DNA of 64,000 nt from Omnitrophica bacterium GWA2_41_15 (GCA_919902675.1 CAKKRH010000001.1:64003-128002); one strand, 5' to 3'. Positions 3 through 50,069 are shown, numbered from the stretch's first letter. The notes: generated by a model from the letters alone, not told the origin. Translations and numbers: made by a program.

Positions 3-1145
3 TTTTGGATTTTAGCCGGGAAAAGCTTTATCTTTGCCCTAACAGTCTTTATTACGGTCTTGATTATTGCCTGTCCCTGCAGTTTAGGTCTGGCAGTGCC
101 CACGGCGGTAATGGCCGGTACCGGAAGGGCCGCGGAGCGCGGCATTATCATCAAGAACGCCAAAAGCCTGCAAATCGCCCGGCAGATAAAGACCATAATC
201 TTTGACAAGACCGGCACCTTGACTATAGGTAAACCCAGGGTTAGCGATGTCTTTGGTTGCGCCGGGAGCGAGGATGAGATATTGAAGCTGTGCGCCTCCT
301 TAGAAAATAAATCCGAACACCCTTTGGCCGAGGCGGTGGTGGAGGCGGCGAACGCGAAAGGCATTTCCCTGACAGAGGTAGAGGCATTCGAGGCTGTCCC
401 GGGCAAAGGGCTGATTGGAAAAATAGCAGGCGGGAACCTTTTGCTGGGCAGCCGGAGGCTGATGGAGGAAAAAGGCGTCAATTTGCAGTCTGTTGATGAG
501 GGTATCAAGAAATTAGAAACCCAGGGCAAGACGCTGATGTTTTTAGCCAAAGACGGTAAGCTGGCCGGATTGATTGCCGTGAGGGATACCTTAAAAGAAT
601 TTTCTAAGGCGGCAATAGATGGTTTGAAGAAGATGGGTAAGCAGGTGATAATGCTTACCGGTGATAACCAGCGCACTGCCCAGGCTATCGCCGGGGAAGT
701 GGGGATAGCCCAGGTTCTGTCGGAAGTCCTGCCTCAAGATAAGCAGGATGAGATCAAGAAACTGCAAAGCTCAGGCAATAAGGTTGCCTTTGTGGGGGAT
801 GGGATAAACGATGCCCCGGCCCTGACCCAGGCGGATTTGGGCATTGCCATCGGCAGCGGCACGGATGTGGCTATTGAAGCCGGGGATATAATCTTGATTA
901 GAGATGATTTAAGGGATGTTATTTCGGCCCTGGACATCTCTAATTATTTACTGCGCAAGATAAAACAGAATTTATTCTTTTCCTTCTTTTATAACAGCAT
1001 CTCCATCCCTATTGCCGCGGGCCTCTTGTATCCCTTTACCGGATTTCTGCTCAATCCCCTAATAGCTGGAGCGGCAATGGCCTTGAGTTCAGTTTCGGTA
1101 GTAATAAATTCTCTCTTTATACGCCGCTACAAAAGAAATATTTAA
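3..1145 (+). CDS. copA: Heavy-metal (Cu/Ag-type) translocating P1B-type ATPase, C-terminal part; 5' end lies outside the window
   Basis: The frame is open from nt 3. TM6 CPC motif (VLIIACPCSLGLA), phosphorylation site FDKTGTLT, MLTGDN and GDGINDAPAL hinge motifs. Confidence 0.9.
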   Translation, partial: FWILAGKSFIFALTVFITVLIIACPCSLGLAVPTAVMAGTGRAAERGIIIKNAKSLQIARQIKTIIFDKTGTLTIGKPRVSDVFGCAGSEDEILKLCASLENKSEHPLAEAVVEAANAKGISLTEVEAFEAVPGKGLIGKIAGGNLLLGSRRLMEEKGVNLQSVDEGIKKLETQGKTLMFLAKDGKLAGLIAVRDTLKEFSKAAIDGLKKMGKQVIMLTGDNQRTAQAIAGEVGIAQVLSEVLPQDKQDEIKKLQSSGNKVAFVGDGINDAPALTQADLGIAIGSGTDVAIEAGDIILIRDDLRDVISALDISNYLLRKIKQNLFFSFFYNSISIPIAAGLLYPFTGFLLNPLIAGAAMALSSVSVVINSLFIRRYKRNI

Positions 1146-1181
1146 GTGGTCCTTCATAGTTCACAGGTATTCTCTCCCCAA

Positions 1182-1193
1182 GAAAGCGCTTTC
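1182..1193. promoter_or_regulatory. Perfect 12-bp palindrome GAAAGCGCTTTC (candidate operator), copy 1 of 2
   Basis: The identical 12-mer, inside a conserved block of about 40 nt (AGAAAGCGCTTTCC..AAACCCC.GTTTT.GCC.TGTTTT), recurs at 43981..43992 upstream of the paralogous giant gene. Confidence 0.6.
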
Positions 1194-1233
1194 CCCAAAC
1201 CCCGGTTTTAGCCTTGTTTTAGCTTTGTTTATG

Positions 1234-1242
1234 TGGCATACT
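1234..1242 (+). promoter_or_regulatory. Extended -10-like element TGgCATACT upstream of giant gene 1
   Basis: Aligns with TGgTATATT at 44033..44041 in the paralogous upstream region. Phased T-tracts (GTTTTAGCCT TGTTTTAGCT TTGTTTATG) lie just upstream. Confidence 0.45.
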
Positions 1243-1343
1243 TTATATAAGAAGTTGAGACCGTTGCAAAACCCTAAAAAACTCTAATCTTGAAACATTT
1301 CTGTATGAGATCCTTCGTCGGGACTTACGTCACTCCTCAGGAT

Positions 1344-1378
1344 GAGAGCGTTGAAAAGCAGGATTTTTCAACGCTCTC
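1344..1378 (+). other. Perfect 14-bp stem / 7-nt loop hairpin in the giant-gene-1 leader
   Basis: GAGAGCGTTGAAAA gcaggat TTTTCAACGCTCTC. It lies in about 150 nt of leader that the paralog at 44054 lacks. Confidence 0.6.
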
Positions 1379-1403
1379 AAGTTATAACTTCTTCAACAAC
1401 CTT

Positions 1404-4400
1404 ATGCTCCATAATCTTAACAAACTCATATCCCTCTTTATCTCCTTCTGCCTCATCCTTGAGCAGACAGCCTTTGCCCAAAGCCTAGACCTTTCCCGTT
1501 ACCTTGCCAATTCAACCAAGCCTCTCCTCCAAAGCGATAAGTTCCGCCCCTTACATCTAAGATACATCTCCTACGATAACAAAAGCAATGATTTTAAGCT
1601 GTTGTTAGACAAAGGCGATTTTCTGAAGAGCCCGCTGAAGGGACTATCCCCGCCTGCCCCGAGCAAAGCCGAGGGGCAGGGGACTGTCCCTGATGAAGCT
1701 GAAGCAAGGCTCAAAGAGGCCACCCAAGAGCTGATGAAATACTTCTTCATTGGATTGGCCTTACCCAACGAAAAGTTTTGGGTCAACCTAAGGCCGGACT
1801 CCCCCGACAATATCTTGGACCCGGACTTAGAAAAGACCGATATCGGAAGGATATTCTTAGAAGCTGACCTCCAGCTAAAAAAAGACACCTCAAGCCTTAC
1901 CTCCCCCCAGACCCCGGAAGGCAAGGCCTACTGGGATAAGCTCTACCAGAAGGCAGGGGAATTATACGGCACTGAGAATATCACTATTCCCACCCTAACC
2001 CGTCCCTGGATAGTCCCGGATGAAATCATTCTTAGGGAGTCTCCCGATACTAGCGCCTACATCTATAAAGCCACCTTAAAAGTGATGCTGGAAGAAGACT
2101 ATCTTAAGGGTTATCAGCCTTCAGCCTTCAGCTCTCAGCAATCTAGTCCAAACCTCCAACCTTTAACTTCTAACTACAACTTTTCCGATCCTAGGCTAAA
2201 AGAGCTAAATCAGTATTCTACCCAGTTAATCAGAGAAACCATGATCCCTAAACTTACCCGGGAGATCAACTCCTCCAGGAGATACGCTCCACTAAGACAA
2301 GTCTACTACTCTTTGATCTTAGCCCAGCATTTTAAAAAGAAGTTTATAAACAAATCCGGGCCCTATTCAAGCCTTATGGATTCAAGAGATCTCACTAATT
2401 TAACCTCTCCTGAACCCTGGGATAAGCGGACTTACTTTAAGGAATATCAAAAATCTTTCCAGGAGGGTGAATATAATCTCAAAGCCAGTCAGTCCACGAC
2501 CTATGGTCAGGTTATCCGCAGGTATATGAGCGGGGGAGTGGAACTGGGTAACGGTGGTTCTTCATCTCTGATTATTTCGGCGAAAGATAACAGAATTATA
2601 AATCATCCCGGGATATTAAAGGTTAGCAGTGCTATATTGCCCGGCGACCTTAAGGCGCTTGGCAGGCCAACCAGCAGTCCGGCGGTAGAATATGTGTCAA
2701 AATCTAAGGATTTGCAAATTAGCGATAATCCTAAAATTAAACGAATCTGGGGTGAGATGGTTGAGGAGAACCTAAAACTATATAAATTTGCTCAGGAATT
2801 AACCAAGCTTACCGGTGATTATAACTTTATTAATAAATTCCCTGATGAGGATCTGAATAATCTGCGCGTGTTCTATAATAGCCTGAATGAAAAAGATCAG
2901 GTTTATAATTTAGGTTTTATTACTTTTAATAGCGGCATAGGAAAAAGAAGCGGTTCACAATTAGCCGCACGGTTTAAATTCAACCTCATGTTTTTAGCGA
3001 GCATGGTGAATGCTAAAATAGAGCCTGCTGATATTTTTAATAAAGAAAGGAACAATACTTTATTGGATGATAAGGATATGGAAAAGATTGCTTCCGGAAG
3101 GAAACTTAAAGAAGGTGAAGAGCTTCACTATTTATGGAGACATTTTAAGGCAATGAGTGATATTGTCTGGAAGGGAGTTAATAAAAATAAAGTTGATAAA
3201 TTCTTTAGAAGATTTGAGGATTTGCTGGATATTTTTCAGCAAGAACGCCAGTCGTATGATGAGATCGCGCGGGTTCGCCATGCAGGAGAAAAACCATATA
3301 TGGCAATTTTAAAGCAATATCAAAGTCAGATTCCTGAGCTTATTAATTCTGATTCTCCGAGACAATGGATTGAGCGGCAAGAATTAGTTGGGCCAATCAC
3401 CCCTGAAGGAAAAATAGGGAATATAGGGGATTTTCCTAATCCGCGCTTACCGGGTGAATCTATGGGAAAGGTGAGAAAATTCAGGCTTCCCGATGGCCGG
3501 GAGGTTTACGCTAAGCGAGTTAATCCTTTACGCGCGCGATATCCTGAGGAAGAAATTATGATTTCGCTGGAAGTTGATAAAAGCTTAAAGAAGATCAGCC
3601 CTTATTTTGGCGTGCAGGAGTTTATCGGTATTGTGTATGACCATGGGGCTTTTTACTTATTGTCCCTGGCTATCACCGGAGAAAGATATTCGCCAGATAA
3701 AGAAGAAGCGAATGATCCATACCAATTTAAAGCGGAGGTCGAGAAAATTCTAGTGCCTTTAGGTTTGGGCGATATTGAACATTTATTTATTTATAAAGAC
3801 GGAAATATTCATTGTGTGTTCTTAGATTTTGAAACGTTTCCTTATCATTCAGCCAAAGAAGAGAATAAAGCCACGGAAGCCCTTAAAAGCAGTTTGTCAT
3901 TAGGAAGTGACAGAGAAGTCGGAGTGAGGAATATCGTTTCTTCGGCAACTGATGGCGATTCAGGTGAGTTAATTTTTAAAGGTTTTGAAGGTGAGTCTAA
4001 AGCGGAAATATTAACTAAGGTAATTGGATCGCTTCAGAAAACAGCAAAAGAAATAGAAAAAGCAGGAAAAGAGATGGAGGGTGTAGAAAATGAACAAGTA
4101 AATATTTTTGAAAGATATAAAGCATTTAAGGAGGAGATAGAAACCAATCCGAAATTAATAAAGGAAAAGATAGAAAAATTTGGAGAATTGTTGGATAAGT
4201 TTAGCGCGGAGGTGAGAAACATAGTGAAAAATAACAACAACAATGAAGAAAAAGTGTTTTTTTCAGAAGTATATGTTTCTGTATTTTACGATTTAATAGA
4301 TAAAATTAACAAAGCTAGGTGGTACCCGCATTATATTGAATATGGAGCGAAGGTGGATAACTTCATAAGGGTGATGGACGCTTATATAAAATTATTGTCA

Positions 4401-5639
4401 GATATTCAAAGCCCGGAGAAAATTGAGGAAAAATATGCAGAAAGGATGGCTCACCGATTGGCTGAGTCAGTGGGTGAGCCGAAATTGACCTATCGGTTAT
4501 TAAAAGAATACAACAAACTGCCTCAAGAAGAAAAATCATCCGCTATCCCTGGGCAAATAAAAGAAGCAGAAATAGAGGAGATATTAAAGAACTTTCCTTT
4601 AAATAACCCTGATTGGTTGGGCGGGAAATTAAAAAATAGAATAGCAGAGGATTATGGGAGGCTTTCTGTGCTTGAGCCGATTATTGCTGATCAGTATGGC
4701 CAATCGAATGATTTCTTGCGTTTACCCGATGAAACGATGGATAATCTTAAGGCGCAGTTTAAGGAAAAAGCAAATGAATACTTTTATCTGCCGATAATAA
4801 CTAAGCATTGGATAAAGGTATTAACTTATCAATATTGGGTAAATAGTTATAATTATAAGGTGATTATTGCTAAGAAGTCGGCTTTAGAAAAATCGCTTAA
4901 TTATACGTATAGGGATATTGTTGAAGGTAATGATGATATCTTGCTTTTATGGGAATTTACCTTAAGATCGGAGAATAATCCGCCTACCATAATTCTGGAA
5001 CAACAGGGACTTTATAAAGGGTTGAGGAGGCAGGGATTTATCTCTGAGGCGTATCCCTTGTTTGTTCAAGGCTTAGCTGAGAAATTTCCAGGATGGCAGG
5101 TGGAGGGAGAGTTTGAAAATCCTGAAAGACATGAAAACCCTCCCGCGCTTGTTCTTTTTAAGAACTATTTTCTTGATCCACAACCATTAGATGCAAGAAA
5201 AGACGAAGTGCCGGATTACACAGAACCTGCAATATGGAAGGCGAGAATACCGCCATTTAATCCTCCCTCTTCTCCTGTAAACAACCCCGGAGGTATAGAC
5301 TTGAGCGCCTTGCCCGTTACTATTCAATCCGCTTTAAACCAGCCTTTGACGGCCAATATGCCTATGGCCGGCTCAGCTTTAAATCTCAACCTTAATTTAG
5401 ATAAGGAACTCCGGGATATCCAGGATATGCTTAATGCCGGGATTATGCCTGCAAGCGAAAGGATTAGAGAATATGCCTTGGCCTCCTCATCCCTAAAACC
5501 GGAAGACCACAGCCGGGAAATTGACCGGCTGTTGGGCTGTATTGCCGATATCTTCCGCTTGGAGGAGGAAAAGGCCAAACCCACCCCCCAGGCCTTAAAA
5601 GACGCGCTTATTCTGTTGGAATCGGATCTGGCCGCCTAA
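1404..5639 (+). CDS. Giant exported multidomain protein, paralog of 44054..47620 (shared N and C modules; centre has kinase-like and GNAT-like regions)
   Basis: Long ORF 1290..5639. I moved the start to ATG 1404 because the paralog starts at the equivalent Met (MLHNLNKLISLFISFCLILEQTAFA/QS versus MSTRLIKLISSFLSFCLIFEHGVFA/QS, both signal-peptide-like). The alternative start is TTG 1290. Confidence 0.85.
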   Translation: MLHNLNKLISLFISFCLILEQTAFAQSLDLSRYLANSTKPLLQSDKFRPLHLRYISYDNKSNDFKLLLDKGDFLKSPLKGLSPPAPSKAEGQGTVPDEAEARLKEATQELMKYFFIGLALPNEKFWVNLRPDSPDNILDPDLEKTDIGRIFLEADLQLKKDTSSLTSPQTPEGKAYWDKLYQKAGELYGTENITIPTLTRPWIVPDEIILRESPDTSAYIYKATLKVMLEEDYLKGYQPSAFSSQQSSPNLQPLTSNYNFSDPRLKELNQYSTQLIRETMIPKLTREINSSRRYAPLRQVYYSLILAQHFKKKFINKSGPYSSLMDSRDLTNLTSPEPWDKRTYFKEYQKSFQEGEYNLKASQSTTYGQVIRRYMSGGVELGNGGSSSLIISAKDNRIINHPGILKVSSAILPGDLKALGRPTSSPAVEYVSKSKDLQISDNPKIKRIWGEMVEENLKLYKFAQELTKLTGDYNFINKFPDEDLNNLRVFYNSLNEKDQVYNLGFITFNSGIGKRSGSQLAARFKFNLMFLASMVNAKIEPADIFNKERNNTLLDDKDMEKIASGRKLKEGEELHYLWRHFKAMSDIVWKGVNKNKVDKFFRRFEDLLDIFQQERQSYDEIARVRHAGEKPYMAILKQYQSQIPELINSDSPRQWIERQELVGPITPEGKIGNIGDFPNPRLPGESMGKVRKFRLPDGREVYAKRVNPLRARYPEEEIMISLEVDKSLKKISPYFGVQEFIGIVYDHGAFYLLSLAITGERYSPDKEEANDPYQFKAEVEKILVPLGLGDIEHLFIYKDGNIHCVFLDFETFPYHSAKEENKATEALKSSLSLGSDREVGVRNIVSSATDGDSGELIFKGFEGESKAEILTKVIGSLQKTAKEIEKAGKEMEGVENEQVNIFERYKAFKEEIETNPKLIKEKIEKFGELLDKFSAEVRNIVKNNNNNEEKVFFSEVYVSVFYDLIDKINKARWYPHYIEYGAKVDNFIRVMDAYIKLLSDIQSPEKIEEKYAERMAHRLAESVGEPKLTYRLLKEYNKLPQEEKSSAIPGQIKEAEIEEILKNFPLNNPDWLGGKLKNRIAEDYGRLSVLEPIIADQYGQSNDFLRLPDETMDNLKAQFKEKANEYFYLPIITKHWIKVLTYQYWVNSYNYKVIIAKKSALEKSLNYTYRDIVEGNDDILLLWEFTLRSENNPPTIILEQQGLYKGLRRQGFISEAYPLFVQGLAEKFPGWQVEGEFENPERHENPPALVLFKNYFLDPQPLDARKDEVPDYTEPAIWKARIPPFNPPSSPVNNPGGIDLSALPVTIQSALNQPLTANMPMAGSALNLNLNLDKELRDIQDMLNAGIMPASERIREYALASSSLKPEDHSREIDRLLGCIADIFRLEEEKAKPTPQALKDALILLESDLAA
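2115..2177 (+). repeat. Nine heptamer-periodic units (63 nt = 21 codons) inside giant gene 1
   Basis: cagcctt cagcctt cagctct cagcaat ctagtcc aaacctc caacctt taacttc taactac; encodes QPSAFSSQQSSPNLQPLTSNY. Confidence 0.75.
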
Positions 5640-9325: not shown

Positions 9326-9745
9326 ATGTTAAAAAGAATAAAAAGAATATTTTCTGATAGTTTCAGCCTCATTCAGGGTTTAGCGGTTACCGCCAAGTAT
9401 TTATTCAAACCGGCGGTTACCATGCAATATCCCACAGAGCGCTGGACGCCTCCGGCGCGTTACCGGGGGAGGGTGGCTTTGCGGCCTAAAAAATGCGTTT
9501 CTTGCCAGATGTGCGCGCGGGCCTGTCCGAATTATTCCTTAGAGGTGAAGTTTAGCCTGGGAGAAGATAAAAAGAGAAAGCTCAATGGTTTTATTTATCA
9601 TTTGGATACCTGTTTGTTCTGCGGCTTGTGCGTTGAACCCTGTCCTACCGCGGCGATATTTATGAATCAGGAGTATGAGTTGGCGGTGTATCAGCGCCAG
9701 AAGTTAGTGATGGACTTGACTGAGGCGGATAAAAATGTGGAGTAA
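9326..9745 (+). CDS. nuoI: NADH-quinone oxidoreductase subunit I (2x[4Fe-4S])
   Basis: CVSCQMCARACP and CLFCGLCVEPCP ferredoxin motifs. Confidence 0.92.
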   Translation: MLKRIKRIFSDSFSLIQGLAVTAKYLFKPAVTMQYPTERWTPPARYRGRVALRPKKCVSCQMCARACPNYSLEVKFSLGEDKKRKLNGFIYHLDTCLFCGLCVEPCPTAAIFMNQEYELAVYQRQKLVMDLTEADKNVE

Positions 9746-42742: not shown

Positions 42743-43930
42743 GTGATAAATTTTAAAGAAGAATTATCCGCGCTGGAAGCCAAAGGCTTAAGGCGCAGGA
42801 TGCGCTTTGCCTCTTCGGCCTGCGGCAGGCAGATCATTATTGACGGCAAAAAGCTCTTAAACTTCTGCTCTAATAATTATCTGGGGCTAGCTAATGACTC
42901 CCGCCTGAAAAAAGCGGCAATCGCGGCAATCAATAGGTTCGGAACAGGCTCAGGGGCCTCGCGATTGGTTTCCGGCAGTAACATTTCGCATAAGCGTTTA
43001 GAAGAAAAACTGGCGGATTTTAAGAAACAGGAAGCCTGTTTAGTTTATCCCAGCGGTTACAGCGCCAATTTGGGGATTATTTCCGCGTTGGCGGGCAGGG
43101 GTGATATTGTCTTTTCTGATCGCCTGAATCACGCCTCCATTATTGACGGAATTATCTTAAGCCGGGCCCAACTGGTGAGGTATCCGCATAAAGATATTAA
43201 AGAATTAGAAAGACTTCTGGAGCGTAACAACGCCGCTGTAGGGGCAGACCTCTGTGTCTGCCCGAAACAGCGCCAGAAAAAACTGATAGTTACCGACAGC
43301 TTATTCAGTATGGACGGAGATATTGCCCCGCTTCCGGAGCTTTCGCGTTTAGCCGAGAAATACGATTGCCTGTTGATGATTGATGAAGCCCACTCAACCG
43401 GAGTTTTGGGTAAGAGCGGCAGAGGGGCTTTGGAACACTTCGGCCTCAAGGCCGATAAGCGGATAATCCAGATGGGCACCTTGAGTAAGGCCTTAGGAGG
43501 CTTGGGGGGTTTTGTCTGCGGGAGCCGGGATTTGATTGACTATTTAGTTAACCGCTCGCGCTCTTTTATCTTTAGCACCGCCTTGCCCGCGGCCCTCTGC
43601 GCCAGCGCCTTAGAGGCTGTCAAAATAATTGAAAAAGATAAATCGCGTATCCAGCGGCTTAAAGAGAATGCCGACTTTTTGCGCGATGGCCTGCGCTCAT
43701 TAGGCTTTGATACTTTAAATTCTCAAACCCCGATTATCCCTATTCTCACCCAAGACCCCCGCCGGACAATGGAATTAAGCCAAAAGCTGTTTGAAAAAGG
43801 CATCTTTGTCCAGGGCATCCGTCCGCCGGCTGTTCCCGATAACCTCTGCCGCCTCAGGGTTACGGCGATGGCAACACATACCAAGAAGGATTTGGAGTTC
43901 GCCTTAAGTGTATTTAAAGAGATAAGATAA
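42743..43930 (+). CDS. bioF: 8-amino-7-oxononanoate synthase
   Basis: DEAHSTGVLG and TLSKALG (PLP lysine). Start chosen at GTG 42743, behind a GGAAGGAG RBS; the track ORF starts at TTG 42725. Confidence 0.85.
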   Translation: MINFKEELSALEAKGLRRRMRFASSACGRQIIIDGKKLLNFCSNNYLGLANDSRLKKAAIAAINRFGTGSGASRLVSGSNISHKRLEEKLADFKKQEACLVYPSGYSANLGIISALAGRGDIVFSDRLNHASIIDGIILSRAQLVRYPHKDIKELERLLERNNAAVGADLCVCPKQRQKKLIVTDSLFSMDGDIAPLPELSRLAEKYDCLLMIDEAHSTGVLGKSGRGALEHFGLKADKRIIQMGTLSKALGGLGGFVCGSRDLIDYLVNRSRSFIFSTALPAALCASALEAVKIIEKDKSRIQRLKENADFLRDGLRSLGFDTLNSQTPIIPILTQDPRRTMELSQKLFEKGIFVQGIRPPAVPDNLCRLRVTAMATHTKKDLEFALSVFKEIR

Positions 43931-43980
43931 TGGCCTATGCCGCGCCTACCGTCAGGCAGGCATAAGTTGTGGCCTCATTA

Positions 43981-43992
43981 GAAAGCGCTTTC
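43981..43992. promoter_or_regulatory. Perfect 12-bp palindrome GAAAGCGCTTTC (candidate operator), copy 2 of 2
   Basis: Identical to 1182..1193 and lies in the same conserved upstream block. Confidence 0.6.
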
Positions 43993-44032
43993 CTGAAACC
44001 CCTGTTTTGCCCTGTTTTTTGGTCAATTCATA

Positions 44033-44041
44033 TGGTATATT
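44033..44041 (+). promoter_or_regulatory. Extended -10 element TGgTATATT for giant gene 2
   Basis: The -10 ends 12 nt before ATG 44054, implying a very short leader. The same 9-mer serves the abiE promoter at 15554..15562. Confidence 0.5.
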
Positions 44042-44053
44042 TTAAGTAGCCAT

Positions 44054-47000
44054 ATGTCTACCAGATTGATCAAACTTATATCTTCTTTTCTCTCTTTCTG
44101 CCTAATTTTTGAGCATGGTGTTTTTGCTCAGAGTATAGACCTCTCGCATTATTTTGCCCATAGTCCTGCTCAAGCAATTCCCCAGAGTGATAAATTCCGC
44201 CCCTTACATTTAAGGTATATCTCCTATGACAGCCAGGCTAATGATTTCAAACTGCTCTTAGATAAAGGTGACTTTATGAAGGGACTGTCCCCGAAGGTAA
44301 CTGTCCCTGATGAGAGACTACAAGAGGAAACCCAAACCCTGATGAAATATTTCTTTATCGTCCTATCCTTGCCCAATGAGAAGTTCTGGGTCAACCTGAG
44401 GCCGGATTCTCCGGATAATATCTTAGATCCGGACCTGGAGAAGACAGACATCGGAAGGATATTTTTGGAAGCTGATGTCCAGCTAAAGAAAGACACCGCA
44501 GGAATGACCTCACCTCAAACCCCGGAAGGCAAGGTCTATTGGGATAAGCTCTATAAGAAGGCAGGGGAATTATTCGGCAGCGAAAACATCACCATCCCCA
44601 CCCTAACCCGGCCCTGGATAGTGCCCAATGAGATAATCATCCGAGAAGCCCCGGATAATGCCTATATCTATAAGGCCACCCTCAAAGTAATGCTGGAGGA
44701 AGACTATCTCAAGGGCTATCAGCCTTCAGCCTTCAGCTCTCAGCAATCTAGCCCAAACTTCCAACCTCTAACTTCAAACTACAGTTTCTCTGACCCCAGG
44801 TTAAAGGAACTTAATAAGTATTCTACCCAGCTGATCAAGGAAACAATCATCCCGAAGCTCACCTATGCGGTGAACACCTCAAAGAGATACGCCCCCTTAA
44901 GGCAGGTGTATTATTCACTGATCCTGGCCCAGTGGTTTAAACAAAAATATGGTCCCCAGTCCCCGGTCTCGGGTCTGCGGTCAGCAGAGCAAAATAATCC
45001 CTATATCAAGCTTATAGATTCCGGCAGCCTAACCTCAAACTTCCAACTTCTAACTTCCCAAAGTCCTTATTCTAAAGAGACCTACTTCCAGCAATACCAG
45101 AAGTCATTTAAGGACGGCGAATACAACCTCCAGGAGCCGGTGTATACGCCAATGGGGCAGAGTATCAGGAGGTATATAAGCGGGGGGATGCAGATAGATT
45201 GTTCTTCGGCGATTGAGGCAGGAAAAATAAAGGCTACCCTAAAGCCATTTTTCAGTAAAATATCCTTGCCGTTTTTTATTGCAGTAACCGCTATCTACTC
45301 AAGCATAGTTTTTAAAGAAAAAATTAAGCCAAATCCTAAGGTAGTAAAAGAATTGATTTCGGCAATAAATGAAAAAGGCGGAAAAATAAATTTTGCTGAT
45401 TATATGTCTATATGCCTATATGGCGATGGAGGATATTATACCAGCGGAACAGTAAATATAGGTGATGGGAGAGTTAATGGTCAGCGATATAAAGGCGATT
45501 TCAGCACTTTTCCGGAAAGTTCTCCACATGCATTCGGCTATGGCCTTGCCGAAAAGATCTATGAAATGTGGAATAATATGGAGAACCCAAACAATTTCCA
45601 GGTAGTGGAAATGGGAGCCGGAAACGGAACAACGGCAAAAATTATTTTAGAATATATTCAGCAGAAATATCCTGAATTTATGAATAGTCTTACTTATACT
45701 ATAGTGGAAATAAGCCCGGCATTGATTGAGAGACAGAAGAAGACTATGCAAGGTATGGCTTATCCTGTAAGATGGATTTTAGGATCCGCAATAGAGATGC
45801 CGTTAAAGAATGTGGTGGGCGTATTTCTTTCTAATGAGCTTCCAGATGCTTTTCCTGTTCGCTTAGTAAGAAAAGACCCCAATGACAGGATAAAAGAAGT
45901 ATTCGTGACTTATAAGAATGGGGTTTTTATGGAAGAGCTCGGAGATATTTTAGACCCAGGAATTAATAAGTATATCAATATGTTGCGAAATAACACTATC
46001 TCAAATGAGGTAAAATATTTATTTTTAAAGAATACCCCTATAAATCTAAATATGATTAAATGGCAGAAAGATATTTATGATAGCCTTAAAAGAGGATACA
46101 TGATTACCTTCGATTACGGCTACAATGGTCCTGCTGGCGCGGGAGATCTCGGTTTACGTGTATACGGCGATAAGCATAAATTTAAATTCAGAGATTCGCT
46201 TCTAAATTCGGGGGAATACATTTATACTTTACCTGGTCAATTTGATATTACGGCAAATGTAAATCTCAAAACATTGCTACAGAATGGGGAAGAAAAAGGA
46301 TTTTCTGGCAGCCAATTAATTGAACAAGGAGAATTCTTTGCGCAAATCCCCGAAAAAGTATTTAAAGGGTATTTACAGGAAAGAGCAAATCTCGCGCATA
46401 AAGATTTTTATGTTCTTACGCAAGGTAAGGATGTTCTTCCAATAGGTTCATTGCCTGCGCGACAATCATTCTCCAGCTCGGCGGTGGAGGGAGGAGAGAA
46501 GAAATTAAGGGAATTGTTATCTAAGCATCCAAAACTGAAGATAGAGTATGACCTTTTTAAAGAGTTTGGGGTTGGCCTGGGAACTAATATTTTAGAAATT
46601 GGTATTGGATCTGAGCATAGAGGAACTGTAGCGGCGGCAATGGGAGCGCATTATCGTCAGTATGAAATATCAGGGGAGATATACGGATTCTCATTCAAAG
46701 AATACATTGATTCTATTGAAATCCCAGGATACAAATATGAGTTCCCTCTTAAGAATAATTTATCCAGCCATAATGGACATGTGGGTGAGGGAACATACAA
46801 TTATATCAGAGGTGAGTTTTCGGGAGGTAATAAATCAGTATCAAATAAGATTGGAAGAGAAGGCTATGTTGAGAACAAGAGTCAAGATATAATTATAGCA
46901 ATGACGGGAGCGTTATCCGACCCTATTCCAGAATCAAACGCACACGATGTTCTTAGAGAAATGTTACGAGTGCTCAAGCCGGGAGGAATGCTCGTGGTAG

Positions 47001-47620
47001 GAACTTACGGTTTATGGGGCAAGGATATAGGGTTGAGTATGCCGCATCCTGAATTGCATGGTTATGAATTTCATAAGTTTAGGAAAGTTGTGAGCGATGT
47101 ATTGAAAGAGCCTGAATGGAGAGGAAAGGTTTTGTTCTCTCAGAGGGAAGAGTTAAGCAGGCAGGATTTTGATCATTTTTTTTCCTTTGACGTATATAAG
47201 ATAGATTTTATCAATTCGTCTCCGTTTGAAAATAACAATAGTAATACGGTTAATAGTTCGTCAAGCTCACTATTAGCAAGTAGCGACAAAGGCGGCATTG
47301 ACTTCCACGCCCTGCCTATTCAAACCGAATCCGTTGCTTCGTCTGCTTTAGGTCTTTTTTCTGCTTTGGGCGCGTTTAAAGGCGATCTTGACGCCGAATG
47401 GTCCCAGATTCAAGCCATCTTTAACTCCGGGATCCGGCCGTCTATCCAGCGTTTGAGTGAATATACCGCCGCGGCCGCCGCCAGTCCTCTGGGCGAAGGT
47501 AAAATTGATCAGGTCAGGGTTATGCTTGCTGACATCCTGCGCCGCGATGAAGAAAGTCAAAAGTCCGCTCCCGCCGAAGAATCCTGCAAGCAGCTACTTA
47601 GACTGCTTGAATCGGGATAA
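44054..47620 (+). CDS. Giant signal-peptide multidomain protein, paralog of 1404..5639; centre holds a MidA/NDUFAF7-like methyltransferase and a second class I SAM methyltransferase
   Basis: MidA-like: YMSICLYGDGGYYTSG, GDFSTFPESSPHAFG, VVEMGAGNGT, FLSNELPDAFPV (aa 430-790). Second MTase: ILEIGIGSE, LRVLKPGGMLVVGTYG (aa 815-1050). N and C modules are shared with giant gene 1. Confidence 0.88.
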   Translation: MSTRLIKLISSFLSFCLIFEHGVFAQSIDLSHYFAHSPAQAIPQSDKFRPLHLRYISYDSQANDFKLLLDKGDFMKGLSPKVTVPDERLQEETQTLMKYFFIVLSLPNEKFWVNLRPDSPDNILDPDLEKTDIGRIFLEADVQLKKDTAGMTSPQTPEGKVYWDKLYKKAGELFGSENITIPTLTRPWIVPNEIIIREAPDNAYIYKATLKVMLEEDYLKGYQPSAFSSQQSSPNFQPLTSNYSFSDPRLKELNKYSTQLIKETIIPKLTYAVNTSKRYAPLRQVYYSLILAQWFKQKYGPQSPVSGLRSAEQNNPYIKLIDSGSLTSNFQLLTSQSPYSKETYFQQYQKSFKDGEYNLQEPVYTPMGQSIRRYISGGMQIDCSSAIEAGKIKATLKPFFSKISLPFFIAVTAIYSSIVFKEKIKPNPKVVKELISAINEKGGKINFADYMSICLYGDGGYYTSGTVNIGDGRVNGQRYKGDFSTFPESSPHAFGYGLAEKIYEMWNNMENPNNFQVVEMGAGNGTTAKIILEYIQQKYPEFMNSLTYTIVEISPALIERQKKTMQGMAYPVRWILGSAIEMPLKNVVGVFLSNELPDAFPVRLVRKDPNDRIKEVFVTYKNGVFMEELGDILDPGINKYINMLRNNTISNEVKYLFLKNTPINLNMIKWQKDIYDSLKRGYMITFDYGYNGPAGAGDLGLRVYGDKHKFKFRDSLLNSGEYIYTLPGQFDITANVNLKTLLQNGEEKGFSGSQLIEQGEFFAQIPEKVFKGYLQERANLAHKDFYVLTQGKDVLPIGSLPARQSFSSSAVEGGEKKLRELLSKHPKLKIEYDLFKEFGVGLGTNILEIGIGSEHRGTVAAAMGAHYRQYEISGEIYGFSFKEYIDSIEIPGYKYEFPLKNNLSSHNGHVGEGTYNYIRGEFSGGNKSVSNKIGREGYVENKSQDIIIAMTGALSDPIPESNAHDVLREMLRVLKPGGMLVVGTYGLWGKDIGLSMPHPELHGYEFHKFRKVVSDVLKEPEWRGKVLFSQREELSRQDFDHFFSFDVYKIDFINSSPFENNNSNTVNSSSSSLLASSDKGGIDFHALPIQTESVASSALGLFSALGAFKGDLDAEWSQIQAIFNSGIRPSIQRLSEYTAAAAASPLGEGKIDQVRVMLADILRRDEESQKSAPAEESCKQLLRLLESG
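44720..44782 (+). repeat. Nine heptamer-periodic units (63 nt) inside giant gene 2; ortholog of 2115..2177
   Basis: cagcctt cagcctt cagctct cagcaat ctagccc aaacttc caacctc taacttc aaactac. Confidence 0.75.
45025..45059 (+). repeat. Second heptamer tract (5 units ACYTCYA) in giant gene 2
   Basis: cagccta acctcaa acttcca acttcta acttccc; encodes SLTSNFQLLTSQ. Confidence 0.65.
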
Positions 47621-47758
47621 GTAAACAATTCTCTTGGCATTAACACAGTCTTTGGAATGTGGTATATCTGTTTCATTTAGTCTGCCTTTAGGTTGACCTA
47701 TTGAAACAAATCCGCCCCTTTTTCAGCGTGACATAAATAGGGATGAAAAAACGGGAAC

Positions 47759-47786
47759 TTGACACTCGTCTTTAAGTGTGATACTT
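47759..47786 (+). promoter_or_regulatory. Sigma70-type promoter of the TA cassette
   Basis: TTGACA (47759..47764), 16-nt spacer ending in tgtg, then ATACTT. A GGAGGTG RBS precedes ATG 47825. Confidence 0.5.
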
Positions 47787-47824
47787 TTGTAAATGTACGG
47801 TATAACCCATTCGGAGGTGAAAAT

Positions 47825-48037
47825 ATGTCGCCAGCAACAACAGTTATCTCTAAGGCATTACATTTAAAGCCATCGGAGCGTTTTTTCGTCATTGAGGCCT
47901 TAATAAAAAGCCTTGATAATCCTGATCCGGCAATTGATAAGGCTTGGGCTGTTGAGGCGGAAAAAAGGCTTAAGGCATATAAGTCTGGGAAGGCAAGAAC
48001 TGTTTCTTTTGAGGGGATGTTCGAGAAACATTCATGA
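47825..48037 (+). CDS. Addiction-module antitoxin (putative addiction module component family)
   Basis: 70 aa, ...LHLKPSERFFVIEALIKSLD..D..IDKAW..EAEKR...YKSGK. 4-nt overlap with the toxin gene. Confidence 0.7.
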   Translation: MSPATTVISKALHLKPSERFFVIEALIKSLDNPDPAIDKAWAVEAEKRLKAYKSGKARTVSFEGMFEKHS

Positions 48038-48324
48038 AAATCGAGATCCTTGAAATCGCCGGCAAGGAGTTTATATCCGCCAAAGAGTTCTACGAATTAG
48101 AACAGTCTGATTTAGGCGCCACATTTGAAAATGAGATAAAACATGCCTTGTTTCGTATACAACGCTATCCCACAGCTTGGTTATGCGAACGAAAAGAAAT
48201 CCGCCGTTATTTTGTCCATCGCTTCCCTTACAAAATTCTTTACTCAATTCAAAAGGAAATTATTATCGTCCTTGCCTTTGCCCATCTGCACAGAAAGCCT
48301 GAATATTGGATTGGCAGGATTTAG
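48034..48324 (+). CDS. RelE/ParE-family toxin
   Basis: 96 aa, ...RYFVHRFPYKILYSIQKEIIIVLAFAHLHRKPEYW, a typical ParE/RelE C-terminal core. Confidence 0.72.
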   Translation: MKIEILEIAGKEFISAKEFYELEQSDLGATFENEIKHALFRIQRYPTAWLCERKEIRRYFVHRFPYKILYSIQKEIIIVLAFAHLHRKPEYWIGRI

Positions 48325-48365
48325 ATCCCGCAAGCAAGCTCCTTAGACTGCTTGTATCGCTATCC
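48325..48365 (+). repeat. Direct repeat of the last 40 nt of giant gene 2 (47581..47620)
   Basis: atcccgcaagcaagctccttagactgcttgtatcgctatcc versus atcctgcaagca-gctacttagactgcttgaatcgggataa, about 31/35 identical over the core. Starts right after the toxin stop codon. Confidence 0.75.
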
Positions 48366-48422
48366 CATGCGCCCAGAAAAAGTCGGAAACCCACTTTGCG
48401 CGTTTCCTTAGCCGAGGCGGTG

Positions 48423-48591
48423 TTAAACCCGGAATTTGCAATAGTAATGGCATTCGCCGCCAAATAAGGGCGCATCTTCGTCAGAAAAAAGCGCTTACAT
48501 ACTAAAAGTATGCGCGCACTTTTTTCTGCCAAATCTACACCCTTCTTTGGCGCCCTCGGTGTCCGCATTCCTATTGCAAAATCCGGGTTAA
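48423..48591. repeat. Long imperfect palindrome of about 170 bp (MITE-like or structured RNA) with roughly 26-bp terminal inverted repeats
   Basis: Left end AACCCGGAATTTGCAATAGTAATG versus the reverse complement of the right end AACCCGGATTTTGCAATAGGAATG (22/24). Internal arms CCAAATAAGGG / CCAAAGAAGGG. Centre at about 48505. Confidence 0.6.
48482..48528 (+). terminator. Bidirectional rho-independent terminator at the core of the palindrome
   Basis: CAGAAAAAAGCGC...CATACT aaa AGTATG...GCGCacTTTTTTCTG, with an A6 run on the 5' side and a T6 run on the 3' side. Confidence 0.65.
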
Positions 48592-48618
48592 AGGGATATG
48601 AGCTAATCTGCAAGAGAT

Positions 48619-49323
48619 ATGAGAAGTGAAATTTTAGTCTTCATCCACGGCTGGGCCAGTGTGCCGGATATATGGGAAACGCAGAAGGAGTATTTTTCCA
48701 GAAATTATGAGGTAATTTTGCCGGATATAGGCCCGGCCCGGGATATTCAGGAAGCGGCGGGATTAGTCAGGGACGCGATTCAGGGTAGCGATGATTTTGT
48801 CCTGGCCGGCTGGTCCTTGGGGTGGCTGGCAGTCTTAGAGGGGCTTAAGAGTTTTTCTTTAAAGCCCAAGGCTGTGGTGGCGGTGAATTCTACCCCTAAA
48901 TTCTGCTCTCACGAATATCTGGGGGCAGGTTCCACCAAAACTCACCTGGATAAGATGATTCGGGATTGTAGGCGCGACCCGCGAAAAACTATGGAGAATT
49001 TTTATAAGGGTATGCTTACGGATAATGGAAAGAGTATGGCAAATAGTTTTCAATTTAAAAACATAGATTATAGCAAGCTGATGTATGGCTTGTCCATGCT
49101 TAGGGACGCTGATTATCGGGATTTTATCGGCACTATAGATATCCCGGCGCTGATTATTACCGGGGCAAGGGATAATATTTGTGTTCCCCAGGTATCCGAA
49201 TATATGCGTCAGAGGATTAAGCAGTCGGATTTAAAGGTTTTTGACTGCGGGCATCTGCCGTTTCTGGATAAGGCGGATGAATTTAATTCTGCCGTAGATG
49301 ATTTTATTAAAAAGTTAAAATGA
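48619..49323 (+). CDS. bioH: Pimeloyl-ACP methyl ester carboxylesterase (alpha/beta hydrolase)
   Basis: HGWA..., GWSLGW nucleophile elbow, C-terminal GHLPF. Adjacent to and overlapping bioC. Confidence 0.75.
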   Translation: MRSEILVFIHGWASVPDIWETQKEYFSRNYEVILPDIGPARDIQEAAGLVRDAIQGSDDFVLAGWSLGWLAVLEGLKSFSLKPKAVVAVNSTPKFCSHEYLGAGSTKTHLDKMIRDCRRDPRKTMENFYKGMLTDNGKSMANSFQFKNIDYSKLMYGLSMLRDADYRDFIGTIDIPALIITGARDNICVPQVSEYMRQRIKQSDLKVFDCGHLPFLDKADEFNSAVDDFIKKLK

Positions 49324-50069
49324 TTTCCACTCAAAAAATAAGAGATAACTTTTCCCGCAGCGCTGTTTATTACGAGAAATACGCGGATATTCAGCTCAAG
49401 CTTGCCCAGGAATTGCTTGAGGAAGTCATTGGTGGCGACTACACAGCGAATAAGGTTTTGGATATCGGCTGCGGCACCGGCTGGCTCTTGGCTGAATTAA
49501 AGAGATTCCTGCCCCAAGCTCGGCTCTGGGGCCTGGATATCAGCTTAGAGATGGCCCGTAAGACAAGGGAACGGTTTGCGGATGTCCTGGCCGGGGATGC
49601 CGTTTCTTTGCCGTTTAAGGACAATACACTGGACCTGGTTTTATCCAATGCCGTCTATCAATGGGTGGCGGATTTGGAGGCAGCCTTTAAAGAGGCGCGC
49701 CGGATTCTTCGGCCCGGAGGTTGTTTTATCTTCAATTGTTTCGGGGCCCGGACCTTGCGAGAACTGCGCCAGTGTTTCGGGATAGAGGAAACCTTTCTTC
49801 CTAAGGCGGAAGATATAAGAGAGGATCTGAGGGGGGCAGGTTTTTCCTGCCTGGAGTTTAAGGTCAGGGATTGCAACCGGAATTTTGATAATTTAGCCGA
49901 TATCTTAAGCTGGCTGAAATATATCGGGGTAAACCGGATTAATCAACATCAGGGGTTTTTAACCCCCTCCAGGCTGGCCAAGGCTGACCATTTCTACCGC
50001 GTTAACTTTCGCAGTAACGGCCAGGTCTATGCCACTTTTGAGGTTATCACGGTAAAGGTAAAGAAATAG
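49320..50069 (+). CDS. bioC: Malonyl-ACP O-methyltransferase
   Basis: NFSRSAVYYEKYADIQ, LDIGCGTGW. Confidence 0.82.
   Translation: MISTQKIRDNFSRSAVYYEKYADIQLKLAQELLEEVIGGDYTANKVLDIGCGTGWLLAELKRFLPQARLWGLDISLEMARKTRERFADVLAGDAVSLPFKDNTLDLVLSNAVYQWVADLEAAFKEARRILRPGGCFIFNCFGARTLRELRQCFGIEETFLPKAEDIREDLRGAGFSCLEFKVRDCNRNFDNLADILSWLKYIGVNRINQHQGFLTPSRLAKADHFYRVNFRSNGQVYATFEVITVKVKK

Follow-up and report, generated by a model that had tools for sequence, protein, structure and literature searches.

A repeated gene end beside a toxin-antitoxin cassette in an Omnitrophota biotin cluster as the probable scar of recombination

In Omnitrophica bacterium GWA2_41_15 the biotin genes bioF and bioH are separated by 4.7 kb of DNA that holds a very large gene, here called giant gene 2, followed by a small toxin-antitoxin (TA) cassette, and the last stretch of the giant gene is found again, as a diverged copy, directly behind the toxin gene. 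How did the end of one gene come to stand on both sides of a TA cassette? A sequence-only reading of this locus had proposed that the cassette inserted into, or recombined at, the giant gene's 3′ end and duplicated its target in doing so or, as an alternative, that the second copy is the remnant of another giant gene. We addressed the question in a window of 64,000 nucleotides (nt; GCA_919902675.1 CAKKRH010000001.1:64003-128002), whose coordinates are used throughout unless a related locus (L numbers) is named. The answer towards which we lean is that the copy behind the toxin gene (copy B) is no target-site duplication but what recombination, acting in the manner of C-terminal displacement, left of a giant-family gene, an orphaned 3′ fragment.

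The whole interval (43931-48618) is evidently inserted DNA, an accessory island, because bioF and bioH are both intact in the window and are contiguous in three relatives, L001 (Omnitrophica WOR_2 GWF2_43_52), L002 and L022, in which bioF abuts or overlaps bioH. The left border is bioF, encoding 8-amino-7-oxononanoate synthase (42725..43930; Pfam Aminotran_1_2, 221 bits), and the right border is a bioH-like gene for pimeloyl-ACP methyl ester esterase (48619..49323; Pfam Abhydrolase_1/6); both borders and the island features placed below lie on the plus strand, except for a transposon-like element to which no strand is assigned. At the amino-acid (aa) level, the BioF of the window is 74-75% identical to that of L001 and 58-61% to that of L002, and its BioH, which has 53 close homologues, is 64% identical to that of L001 and 81% to that of L022. 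The junction sequence of L022 is ...AGATATGATTAA, and ancestrally the two genes overlapped. Pfam and these relatives thus bear out both the gene assignments made earlier and the view that the biotin cluster is interrupted here. An 8-nt repeat, AAGAGATA, present at 43918-43925 and 48612-48619, was considered as a duplication flanking the island as a whole and was ruled out by the alignment with L022, where its copies correspond to separate ancestral positions (the FKKM codons and the start of bioH).

The same junction is filled differently in other genomes. L023-L025 have a giant gene with an acetyltransferase middle that ends in ..LLSALELR and is followed by a 102-aa winged-helix gene, whereas the giant gene of L026, L027 and L031 has a tail of another type and an HTH_3-Fic gene behind it, the interval in L026 additionally containing an insertion sequence with a DDE transposase. 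Since different giant-family genes are found between bioF and bioH across relatives, the junction is a recurrent site for the integration or replacement of this family's islands. The variable occupants in L011, L023-L027 and L031 support the proposal that the giant gene is accessory DNA at this place.

Local alignment of the 3′ coding end of giant gene 2 (copy A, 47581..47614, encoding ..SCKQLLRLLES) with copy B (48325..48359) matches at 31 positions and differs at 3, copy B having one additional nucleotide, and scores 48, while the best of 2000 shuffles reached 26 and the best alignment elsewhere in the window 25; the 13-nt core of the repeat occurs exactly twice in the window. The repeat had been given as the last 40 nt of the gene, and it does stand as a two-copy repeat with 31 matches and one indel, but the final 6 nt of the gene, GGATAA (47615-47620), lie outside it. 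In the same way, the claim that the repeat brackets the TA unit exactly holds on one side and fails on the other. The first base of copy B is the base directly 3′ of the toxin stop codon TAG (48322-48324), so that the two abut, whereas the homology between copies A and B ends at ...ATCG, 6 nt short of the junction between GGATAA and the cassette that is common to other loci.

Copy A is the native end of its gene, because the closest homologues of giant gene 2 end with the same peptide, ...AEESCKQLL(R/K)(A/L)LE(S/A)(G/E), and have the stop codon in the same place. Copy B was compared with the final 34 coding nt of every member of the subfamily defined by this type of end, and 25-31 of the 34 positions match, the nearest sequence being copy A of the bio locus. 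This likeness to all subfamily 3′ ends therefore reflects family homology, and copy B is best described as an orphan, decaying 3′-terminal fragment of a giant-family gene, a pseudogene remnant. It is followed by a tail (48360..48427) that is non-coding in the window.

The age of copy B follows from two relatives. L011, a metagenome-assembled genome from another assembly (GCA_040960315.1), has the order larE - nifS - bioB - bioF - 111-nt orphan giant 3′ end - AbiEi/AbiEii - giant gene - the same TA - copy B - bioH, and its flanking bio genes have 77-82% nucleotide identity to those of the window. L014 is a near-strain contig that stops 42 nt into bioH and in which copy A, TA and copy B are all present. 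As copy B is common to the window and to L011 with its 77-82% flanks, the repeat predates the divergence of the two. In L011 copy B has no indel and is in frame (SCKQFLRLLASLSH.. up to a stop codon; full reading SCKQFLRLLASLSHTPRKSRKPILCVSWPGRC), with its stop ~25 nt before bioH; in L014 it carries a 1-nt insertion identical to that of the window. The earlier statement that the downstream copy has lost its frame is thus correct for the window lineage, owing to the 1-nt insertion, but not for L011. An indel that separates the window from L011 speaks against a present coding function of 48360..48427, and copy B looks like a gene end that has decayed since the window and L011 split.

L011 furthermore contains a second, independent 3′ relic of a giant gene beside a TA cassette. 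Directly after bioF, and upstream of AbiEi/AbiEii, lies an orphan giant 3′ end of 111 nt that includes the stop codon (relic-1, L011 4098-4217; ..LLRVLEAG, in ..DQVRVMLADILRRDEESERLSPAEESCKQLLRVLEAG) and that is most similar (89%) to the giant genes at the spoVG locus of L012 and L016. Searches with tblastn and blastn across 31 loci returned no orphan giant-gene 3′ ends beyond copy B and relic-1. With its subfamily-wide match and this second orphan, the alternative that the sequence-only reading had placed second, copy B as a relic of another giant-gene copy, fits better than target duplication.

Comparison of nucleotide identities to the window, segment by segment, gives a mosaic pattern. For L011 the values are 80% in the giant-gene 3′ part (C-terminal region), 97.2% in the antitoxin gene, 96.2% in the toxin gene, 88% in copy B, 92.5% in the tail after it and 79-82% in bioH; for L014 they are 93-94% in the giant-gene 3′ part, 100% in the antitoxin gene, 99% in the toxin gene, 97% in copy B and 100% in the tail. 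Because the block of TA, copy B and tail is more alike than its flanks, the pattern indicates that the block has a more recent common ancestor than the flanks and has probably been exchanged recently between lineages by homologous recombination.

The cassette is found with a giant gene in a second context too. At the spoVG locus of L012 and L015-L017 a paralogous giant gene has the same cassette (86.7% nucleotide identity) behind it, which starts directly after the giant stop codon in the L012 type (GGGATAA/AAATAACATTCTTCC...CTTGACACTCG), as it does in L011, and in the window copy A is followed by GGATAA and cassette sequence exactly as at the spoVG locus. From this conserved junction of gene end and cassette it follows that at least the last codons of the giant gene travelled with the cassette, and, since the GGATAA-cassette join is the same at both loci, that the incoming DNA carried a giant-gene end and not the TA alone. 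No copy B-like sequence is present after the toxin stop codon at the spoVG locus of L012 and L015-L017. The cassette thus recurs with copy B behind it at the bio loci of L011 and L014, but not at the spoVG locus. L013, the spoVG locus of the L011 genome, has the giant gene and spoVG without the cassette.

The family to which giant gene 2 belongs has conserved regions in which recombination can be anchored. Giant gene 2 (44054..47620; 1188 aa, with a Methyltransf_28 core in Pfam) has 772 homologues, nearly all from Omnitrophota metagenome bins and most covering only ~32% of the query. Its product consists of a signal peptide and conserved N-terminal domain of ~380 aa, a variable Methyltransf_28 middle and a conserved C-terminal tail of ~110 aa; the two conserved regions are encoded at 44054-45253 and 47261-47617 (homologues P0002-P0120), and the tail follows the family pattern GGIDF...DILRRDEE...LK.LL..LES. 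The middles of the family are unrelated to each other and include methyltransferases, acetyltransferases, radical SAM, M23 peptidase, HPr and others. Between loci, the nucleotide identity of paralogues is 71-74% over ~1.1 kb at the 5′ end and 78-81% over ~0.33 kb at the 3′ end. The giant genes of the window and L011 have their N- and C-termini in common and unrelated middles, which shows recombination within the giant family.

These observations are joined most economically in a displacement event of the following kind. Paralogous giant genes would supply long homology, and a segment ending with a giant-gene 3′ end and the ParE/TIGR02574 TA cassette would replace the 3′ part of a resident giant gene. 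One crossover would be homologous, within the conserved gene body, and the other a join of the illegitimate type that falls precisely on the stop codon of the toxin gene, a point that corresponds to the 5′ base of a hairpin at the 3′ end of the resident gene (see below). The last ~35 nt of the resident gene, together with a ~70-nt tail, would stay downstream as copy B and the tail that follows it. The event would have preceded the split of the window lineage and L011, copy B would have decayed later, acquiring its 1-nt insertion in the window lineage, and the block of TA, copy B and tail would afterwards have passed between lineages by homologous recombination.

Displacement of C-termini is a known process in rhs genes (Jackson et al. 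2009, as cited in PMC5361080), and for effector-immunity arrays of type VI secretion systems (T6SS) there is a proposed displacement model via homology-facilitated illegitimate recombination (Kirchberger et al. 2017, PMC5361080). The bio locus resembles rhs, contact-dependent inhibition (CDI) and T6SS effector-immunity loci in several respects: the family is multi-copy, with long conserved regions that can anchor recombination; incoming DNA would replace the 3′ part and push the former 3′ end downstream as a truncated orphan; truncated 3′ fragments lie beside an intact gene (copy B in the window, L014 and L011; relic-1 in L011); and small protective gene modules are located between the live gene end and the orphan. 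Unlike in those systems, the displaced piece is here the conserved tail and not a variable toxin tip, the variable part being the middle of the protein; the intervening genes form a self-contained type II TA and not an immunity gene cognate to the large protein; and the giant proteins are not known to be toxins or to be delivered to other cells.

Several points weigh against displacement. Copy A at the bio locus is nearer to copy B (CTGCTTG.ATCG) than to the spoVG-locus ends (GCGCTGGAGGCG). The two copies lie 745 bp apart, and their closeness could stem from a resident gene that belonged to the same sub-lineage, from gene conversion or from local duplication, the last two accounting for it just as well as displacement. 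Furthermore, copy B was found in three sequences only (window, L014 and L011), two of which are near-identical, and its tail is like no known C-terminal extension of the giant family. A pre-event allele, that is, a bio-locus giant gene with a copy B-type tail, was not found, the one exact-pattern metagenome scan for it returning only one near-identical strain. Finally, the higher identity of the TA block could in part reflect constraint rather than recent transfer.

Displacement and deletion of a tandem gene fit the present data alike, copy B being a relic in both. In the latter account, which is the alternative of the sequence-only reading and which we consider unlikely, a tandem giant paralogue stood between the TA and bioH, and a deletion that began directly behind the toxin stop codon removed all of it but its last 35 nt. 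A loss of this kind has its counterpart in L011, which shows a giant gene mostly lost with a 111-nt 3′ stub kept beside a TA cassette; several subfamily members hold the site between bioF and bioH in different genomes, and copy B of L011 is in frame up to a stop just before bioH. However, no tandem intact giant genes were seen among the 10 giant-gene loci examined, and the endpoint of the deletion must fall exactly on the toxin stop codon.

The place at which copy B begins also coincides with a predicted structure. In the ..ESCKQLL..LE.G subfamily the 3′ terminus can form a stable hairpin, ATCCTGC...GCGGGAT, whose last bases are those of the stop codon (window 47575-47620, L012 3670-3715, L011 4170-4217). 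Minimum free energies of the subfamily hairpins range from -11 to -21 kcal/mol with z-scores of -1.1 to -3.6, and copy A reaches -16.7 kcal/mol (z = -3.65), while the 3′ ends of 16 other window genes have z-scores near 0 (range -2.1 to +1.6). Copy B starts at the first (5′) base of this hairpin and still folds, with -12.2 kcal/mol in the window and -15 kcal/mol (z = -4.3) in L011. That copy B begins at the base of the hairpin suggests structure-associated breakage or template switching.

The same coincidence also speaks for a site-specific origin. In this third account, copies A and B are attL and attR of a decayed integrative element that entered the 3′ hairpin of the giant gene, brought a replacement end and was then mostly lost, leaving TA modules between the att copies. 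The locus shares with elements that target the 3′ ends of genes (for example tRNA genes) the arrangement of an intact gene end and a displaced partial copy at opposite ends of the insert, with a repeat length in the range of att sites; direct repeats of ~35 nt surround the inserted DNA, and the gene end is reconstituted. A second TA scar between A and B would fit a once-larger insert. The leader region of the TA holds a 121-nt insertion (47636..47756), seen as an alignment gap against L011, L012 and L016 and present only in the window and L014, of which 47638-47675 matches the AbiEi promoter region of L011 at 33/38 positions (score 51, while shuffles reached at most 24), and this insertion looks like the scar of a lost AbiE cassette. 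Its right half has no significant match, and an origin from the AbiEii 3′ flank of L011, which was also considered, found no significant support either. We nevertheless regard the att account as doubtful: no integrase or recombinase was found in or beside the island, neither in the open reading frame (ORF) listing nor with Pfam between bioF and bioH of the window or L011, and, unlike integrative elements, the insert is ~0.7 kb, the repeats are diverged and the same TA follows the L012 paralogue without a second repeat. In addition, the hairpin is limited to one subfamily and its z-scores are modest.

A wider idea would make the subfamily 3′ hairpin a dedicated recombination site that captures and exchanges small cassettes (ParE, AbiE, Phd/YoeB, Fic), the giant genes serving as chromosomal docking platforms for TA and defence cassettes with which they spread into operon junctions such as that of bioF and bioH, in an integron-like or displacement-like manner without a recognised recombinase. 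We see it as a long shot.

Insertion of the TA cassette as a mobile unit, with the repeat as its target-site duplication, was the first proposal of the sequence-only reading, and we find it highly improbable. The cassette does have the same ends in two genomic contexts, the left one directly behind the stop codon of the giant gene and the right one at that of the toxin gene, and copies A and B are each other's closest relatives. Moreover, the cassette of L012 has AAAAATAA on both sides (3710-3725 and 4300-4320), and the cassette-free L013 has it once (9583-9610), a pair that may reflect microhomology or a short stretch duplicated where the cassette went in, although the region is A-rich and the match may be due to chance. 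A length of 35 nt is far above that of the duplications known from transposition. The repeat is imperfect over its 34/35 nt, with differences at 4 positions, and is shared with genomes whose flanks are ~20% diverged, so that no discrete recent event is marked. Neither a transposase nor terminal inverted repeats bound the cassette, the antitoxin and toxin being the only ORFs between the repeats. The homology of A and B stops at GGATAA, before the left edge of the cassette, and such non-coincident boundaries are unlike what is expected for a target duplication. Finally, the L012 cassette lacks the repeat, and the bio locus yielded no empty site.

That copy B works as a hairpin, for instance in termination or RNA stability of the TA operon, and owes its likeness to copy A to convergence or chance, is barely credible in spite of its folding in the window and L011, as the terminator reading is weak for want of a U-tract and of an Rfam match, its 31/35 identity to coding sequence is far above chance, the L012 cassette lacks copy B, and the outer stem of the hairpin is lost in it. 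Rfam applied to 43800-48800 gave only a chance microRNA match below the gathering score, inside the transposon-like element; promoter and terminator scans gave numbers of sites not above those of shuffles, with no terminator at copy A or copy B.

The cassette itself appears to be an ordinary type II module with its own putative promoter. The antitoxin gene (47825..48037; 70 aa) encodes a PF09720/TIGR02574 'putative addiction module component', recognised by Pfam and NCBIfam (PF09720, 57.9 bits with a cut-off of 23.3; TIGR02574, 34.5 bits with a cut-off of 31.9), and starts at 47825 and not at 47759. The co-oriented toxin gene (48034..48324; 96 aa), which comes second and overlaps it by 4 nt (ATGA), was tentatively assigned to the RelE/ParE superfamily through its homologues: it reaches 19.1 bits itself with PF05016, whose cut-off is 23, and its 131 homologues are mostly PF05016 proteins named RelE/ParE by their sources, those with 62-83% identity carrying PF05016. 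The leader (47758..47824), with TTGACA at 47759 and an ACACT..AGTGT inverted repeat, is conserved in L011, L012, L014 and L016 together with the genes at two loci and probably acts as promoter and operator. In its antitoxin-first two-gene operon, its 4-nt overlap, its palindromic operator-like leader, its sizes of 70 + 96 aa, its patchy but wide cross-phylum distribution and its place in accessory DNA, the module resembles chromosomal type II RelE/ParE modules with TIGR02574/PF09720 antitoxins. Against that background it is unremarkable, with a toxin just under the Pfam cut-off and a putative activity. A 74%-identical TA lies after greA in another Omnitrophota genome, with no giant gene nearby, so that a giant gene is no obligate companion of the cassette.

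TA-like modules of six kinds directly adjoin giant-family genes in 7 of the 10 loci examined, a small sample that was not drawn at random. They are ParE/TIGR02574 (window, L011, and L012 with L015-L017), AbiE (L011), MazE/PIN (L013), Phd/YoeB (L029 and L030, the latter from the genome of the window), HTH-Fic (L026 and L031) and a lone winged-helix gene (L023). In L030 (6646-7300) a giant paralogue stands after glmS, and behind it come a Phd/YefM antitoxin and a YoeB/Txe-like toxin ORF that had not been called. The small ORFs of the 64-kb window contained no further TA. It is plausible that the TA stabilises the island by addiction and biases its retention. The giant family has colonised the junction of bioF and bioH in several lineages and has in each of them another small TA-like module at its side. 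If the link between giant gene and TA is general, it would help to explain the persistence of accessory genes within essential operons of the small genomes of uncultivated bacteria, and would make the family a candidate for a polymorphic, possibly host-directed, set of proteins.

The kinds of element met at this locus (type II TA, recombination scar, miniature transposon) are already known, and a scar such as copy B is a fairly ordinary one. Its value is that it can be dated and that it shows a large uncharacterised Omnitrophota family being shuffled by recombination; the host gene family is the more interesting lead. Neither the N-terminal nor the C-terminal conserved domain of giant gene 2 has a match in Pfam or NCBIfam, an AlphaFold model of the N-terminal domain (predicted local distance difference test score 73.6, predicted template modelling score 0.71) gave no fold match to the PDB with Foldseek (best E = 0.96), and literature searches found no description of the family. 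Possibly it forms a polymorphic set of secreted or effector proteins.

Upstream of giant gene 2, a promoter-like block (43980..44050) is 76-80% identical by blastn to the sequence directly upstream of giant genes at different loci in L011, L012 and L013; it travels with giant-family genes and may be their promoter. A public protein from the same contig, P0001, is identical to the product of giant gene 2 for 1043 aa, is frameshifted at a T8 homopolymer within the gene (47176-47183) and ends 6 residues later, losing the C-terminal tail, the result of either a long-read homopolymer error or phase variation. The window has a paralogue, giant gene 1 (1290-5639), whose product is 70% identical to that of giant gene 2 at the N-terminus and 34% at the C-terminus. 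It sits after the 3′ part of a P-type ATPase gene (60-5639 for both), as P0012 does in L028, with no adjacent TA there, which suggests that some members of the family hold conserved chromosomal positions.

The remainder of the cluster was assigned with Pfam. Before bioF are a PP-loop/LarE-like protein (39583-40515), a NifS-like class-V aminotransferase (40517-41680) and BioB (41677-42687; Radical_SAM+BATS), and after bioH are BioC (49320-50069) and a BioD-BioA fusion (50138-52177).

The transposon-like element mentioned above is a 160-bp insertion (48428..48587) that has the features of a miniature inverted-repeat transposable element (MITE). Its 17-nt terminal inverted repeats (CCCGGAATTTGCAATAG) have 1 mismatch, TTAAA is duplicated at 48423-48427 and 48588-48592, and L014 and L011 have in its place the empty site GGTGTTAAAGGGATATG with a single TTAAA. 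Like MITEs, it thus combines terminal inverted repeats, a 5-bp TTAAA target duplication, empty sites in two relatives and no coding capacity. The element is present once in the window, folds with -63.7 kcal/mol and has at its centre an A6-stem-T6 structure, which might end transcription in both directions between the TA and bioH and stop read-through into bioH.

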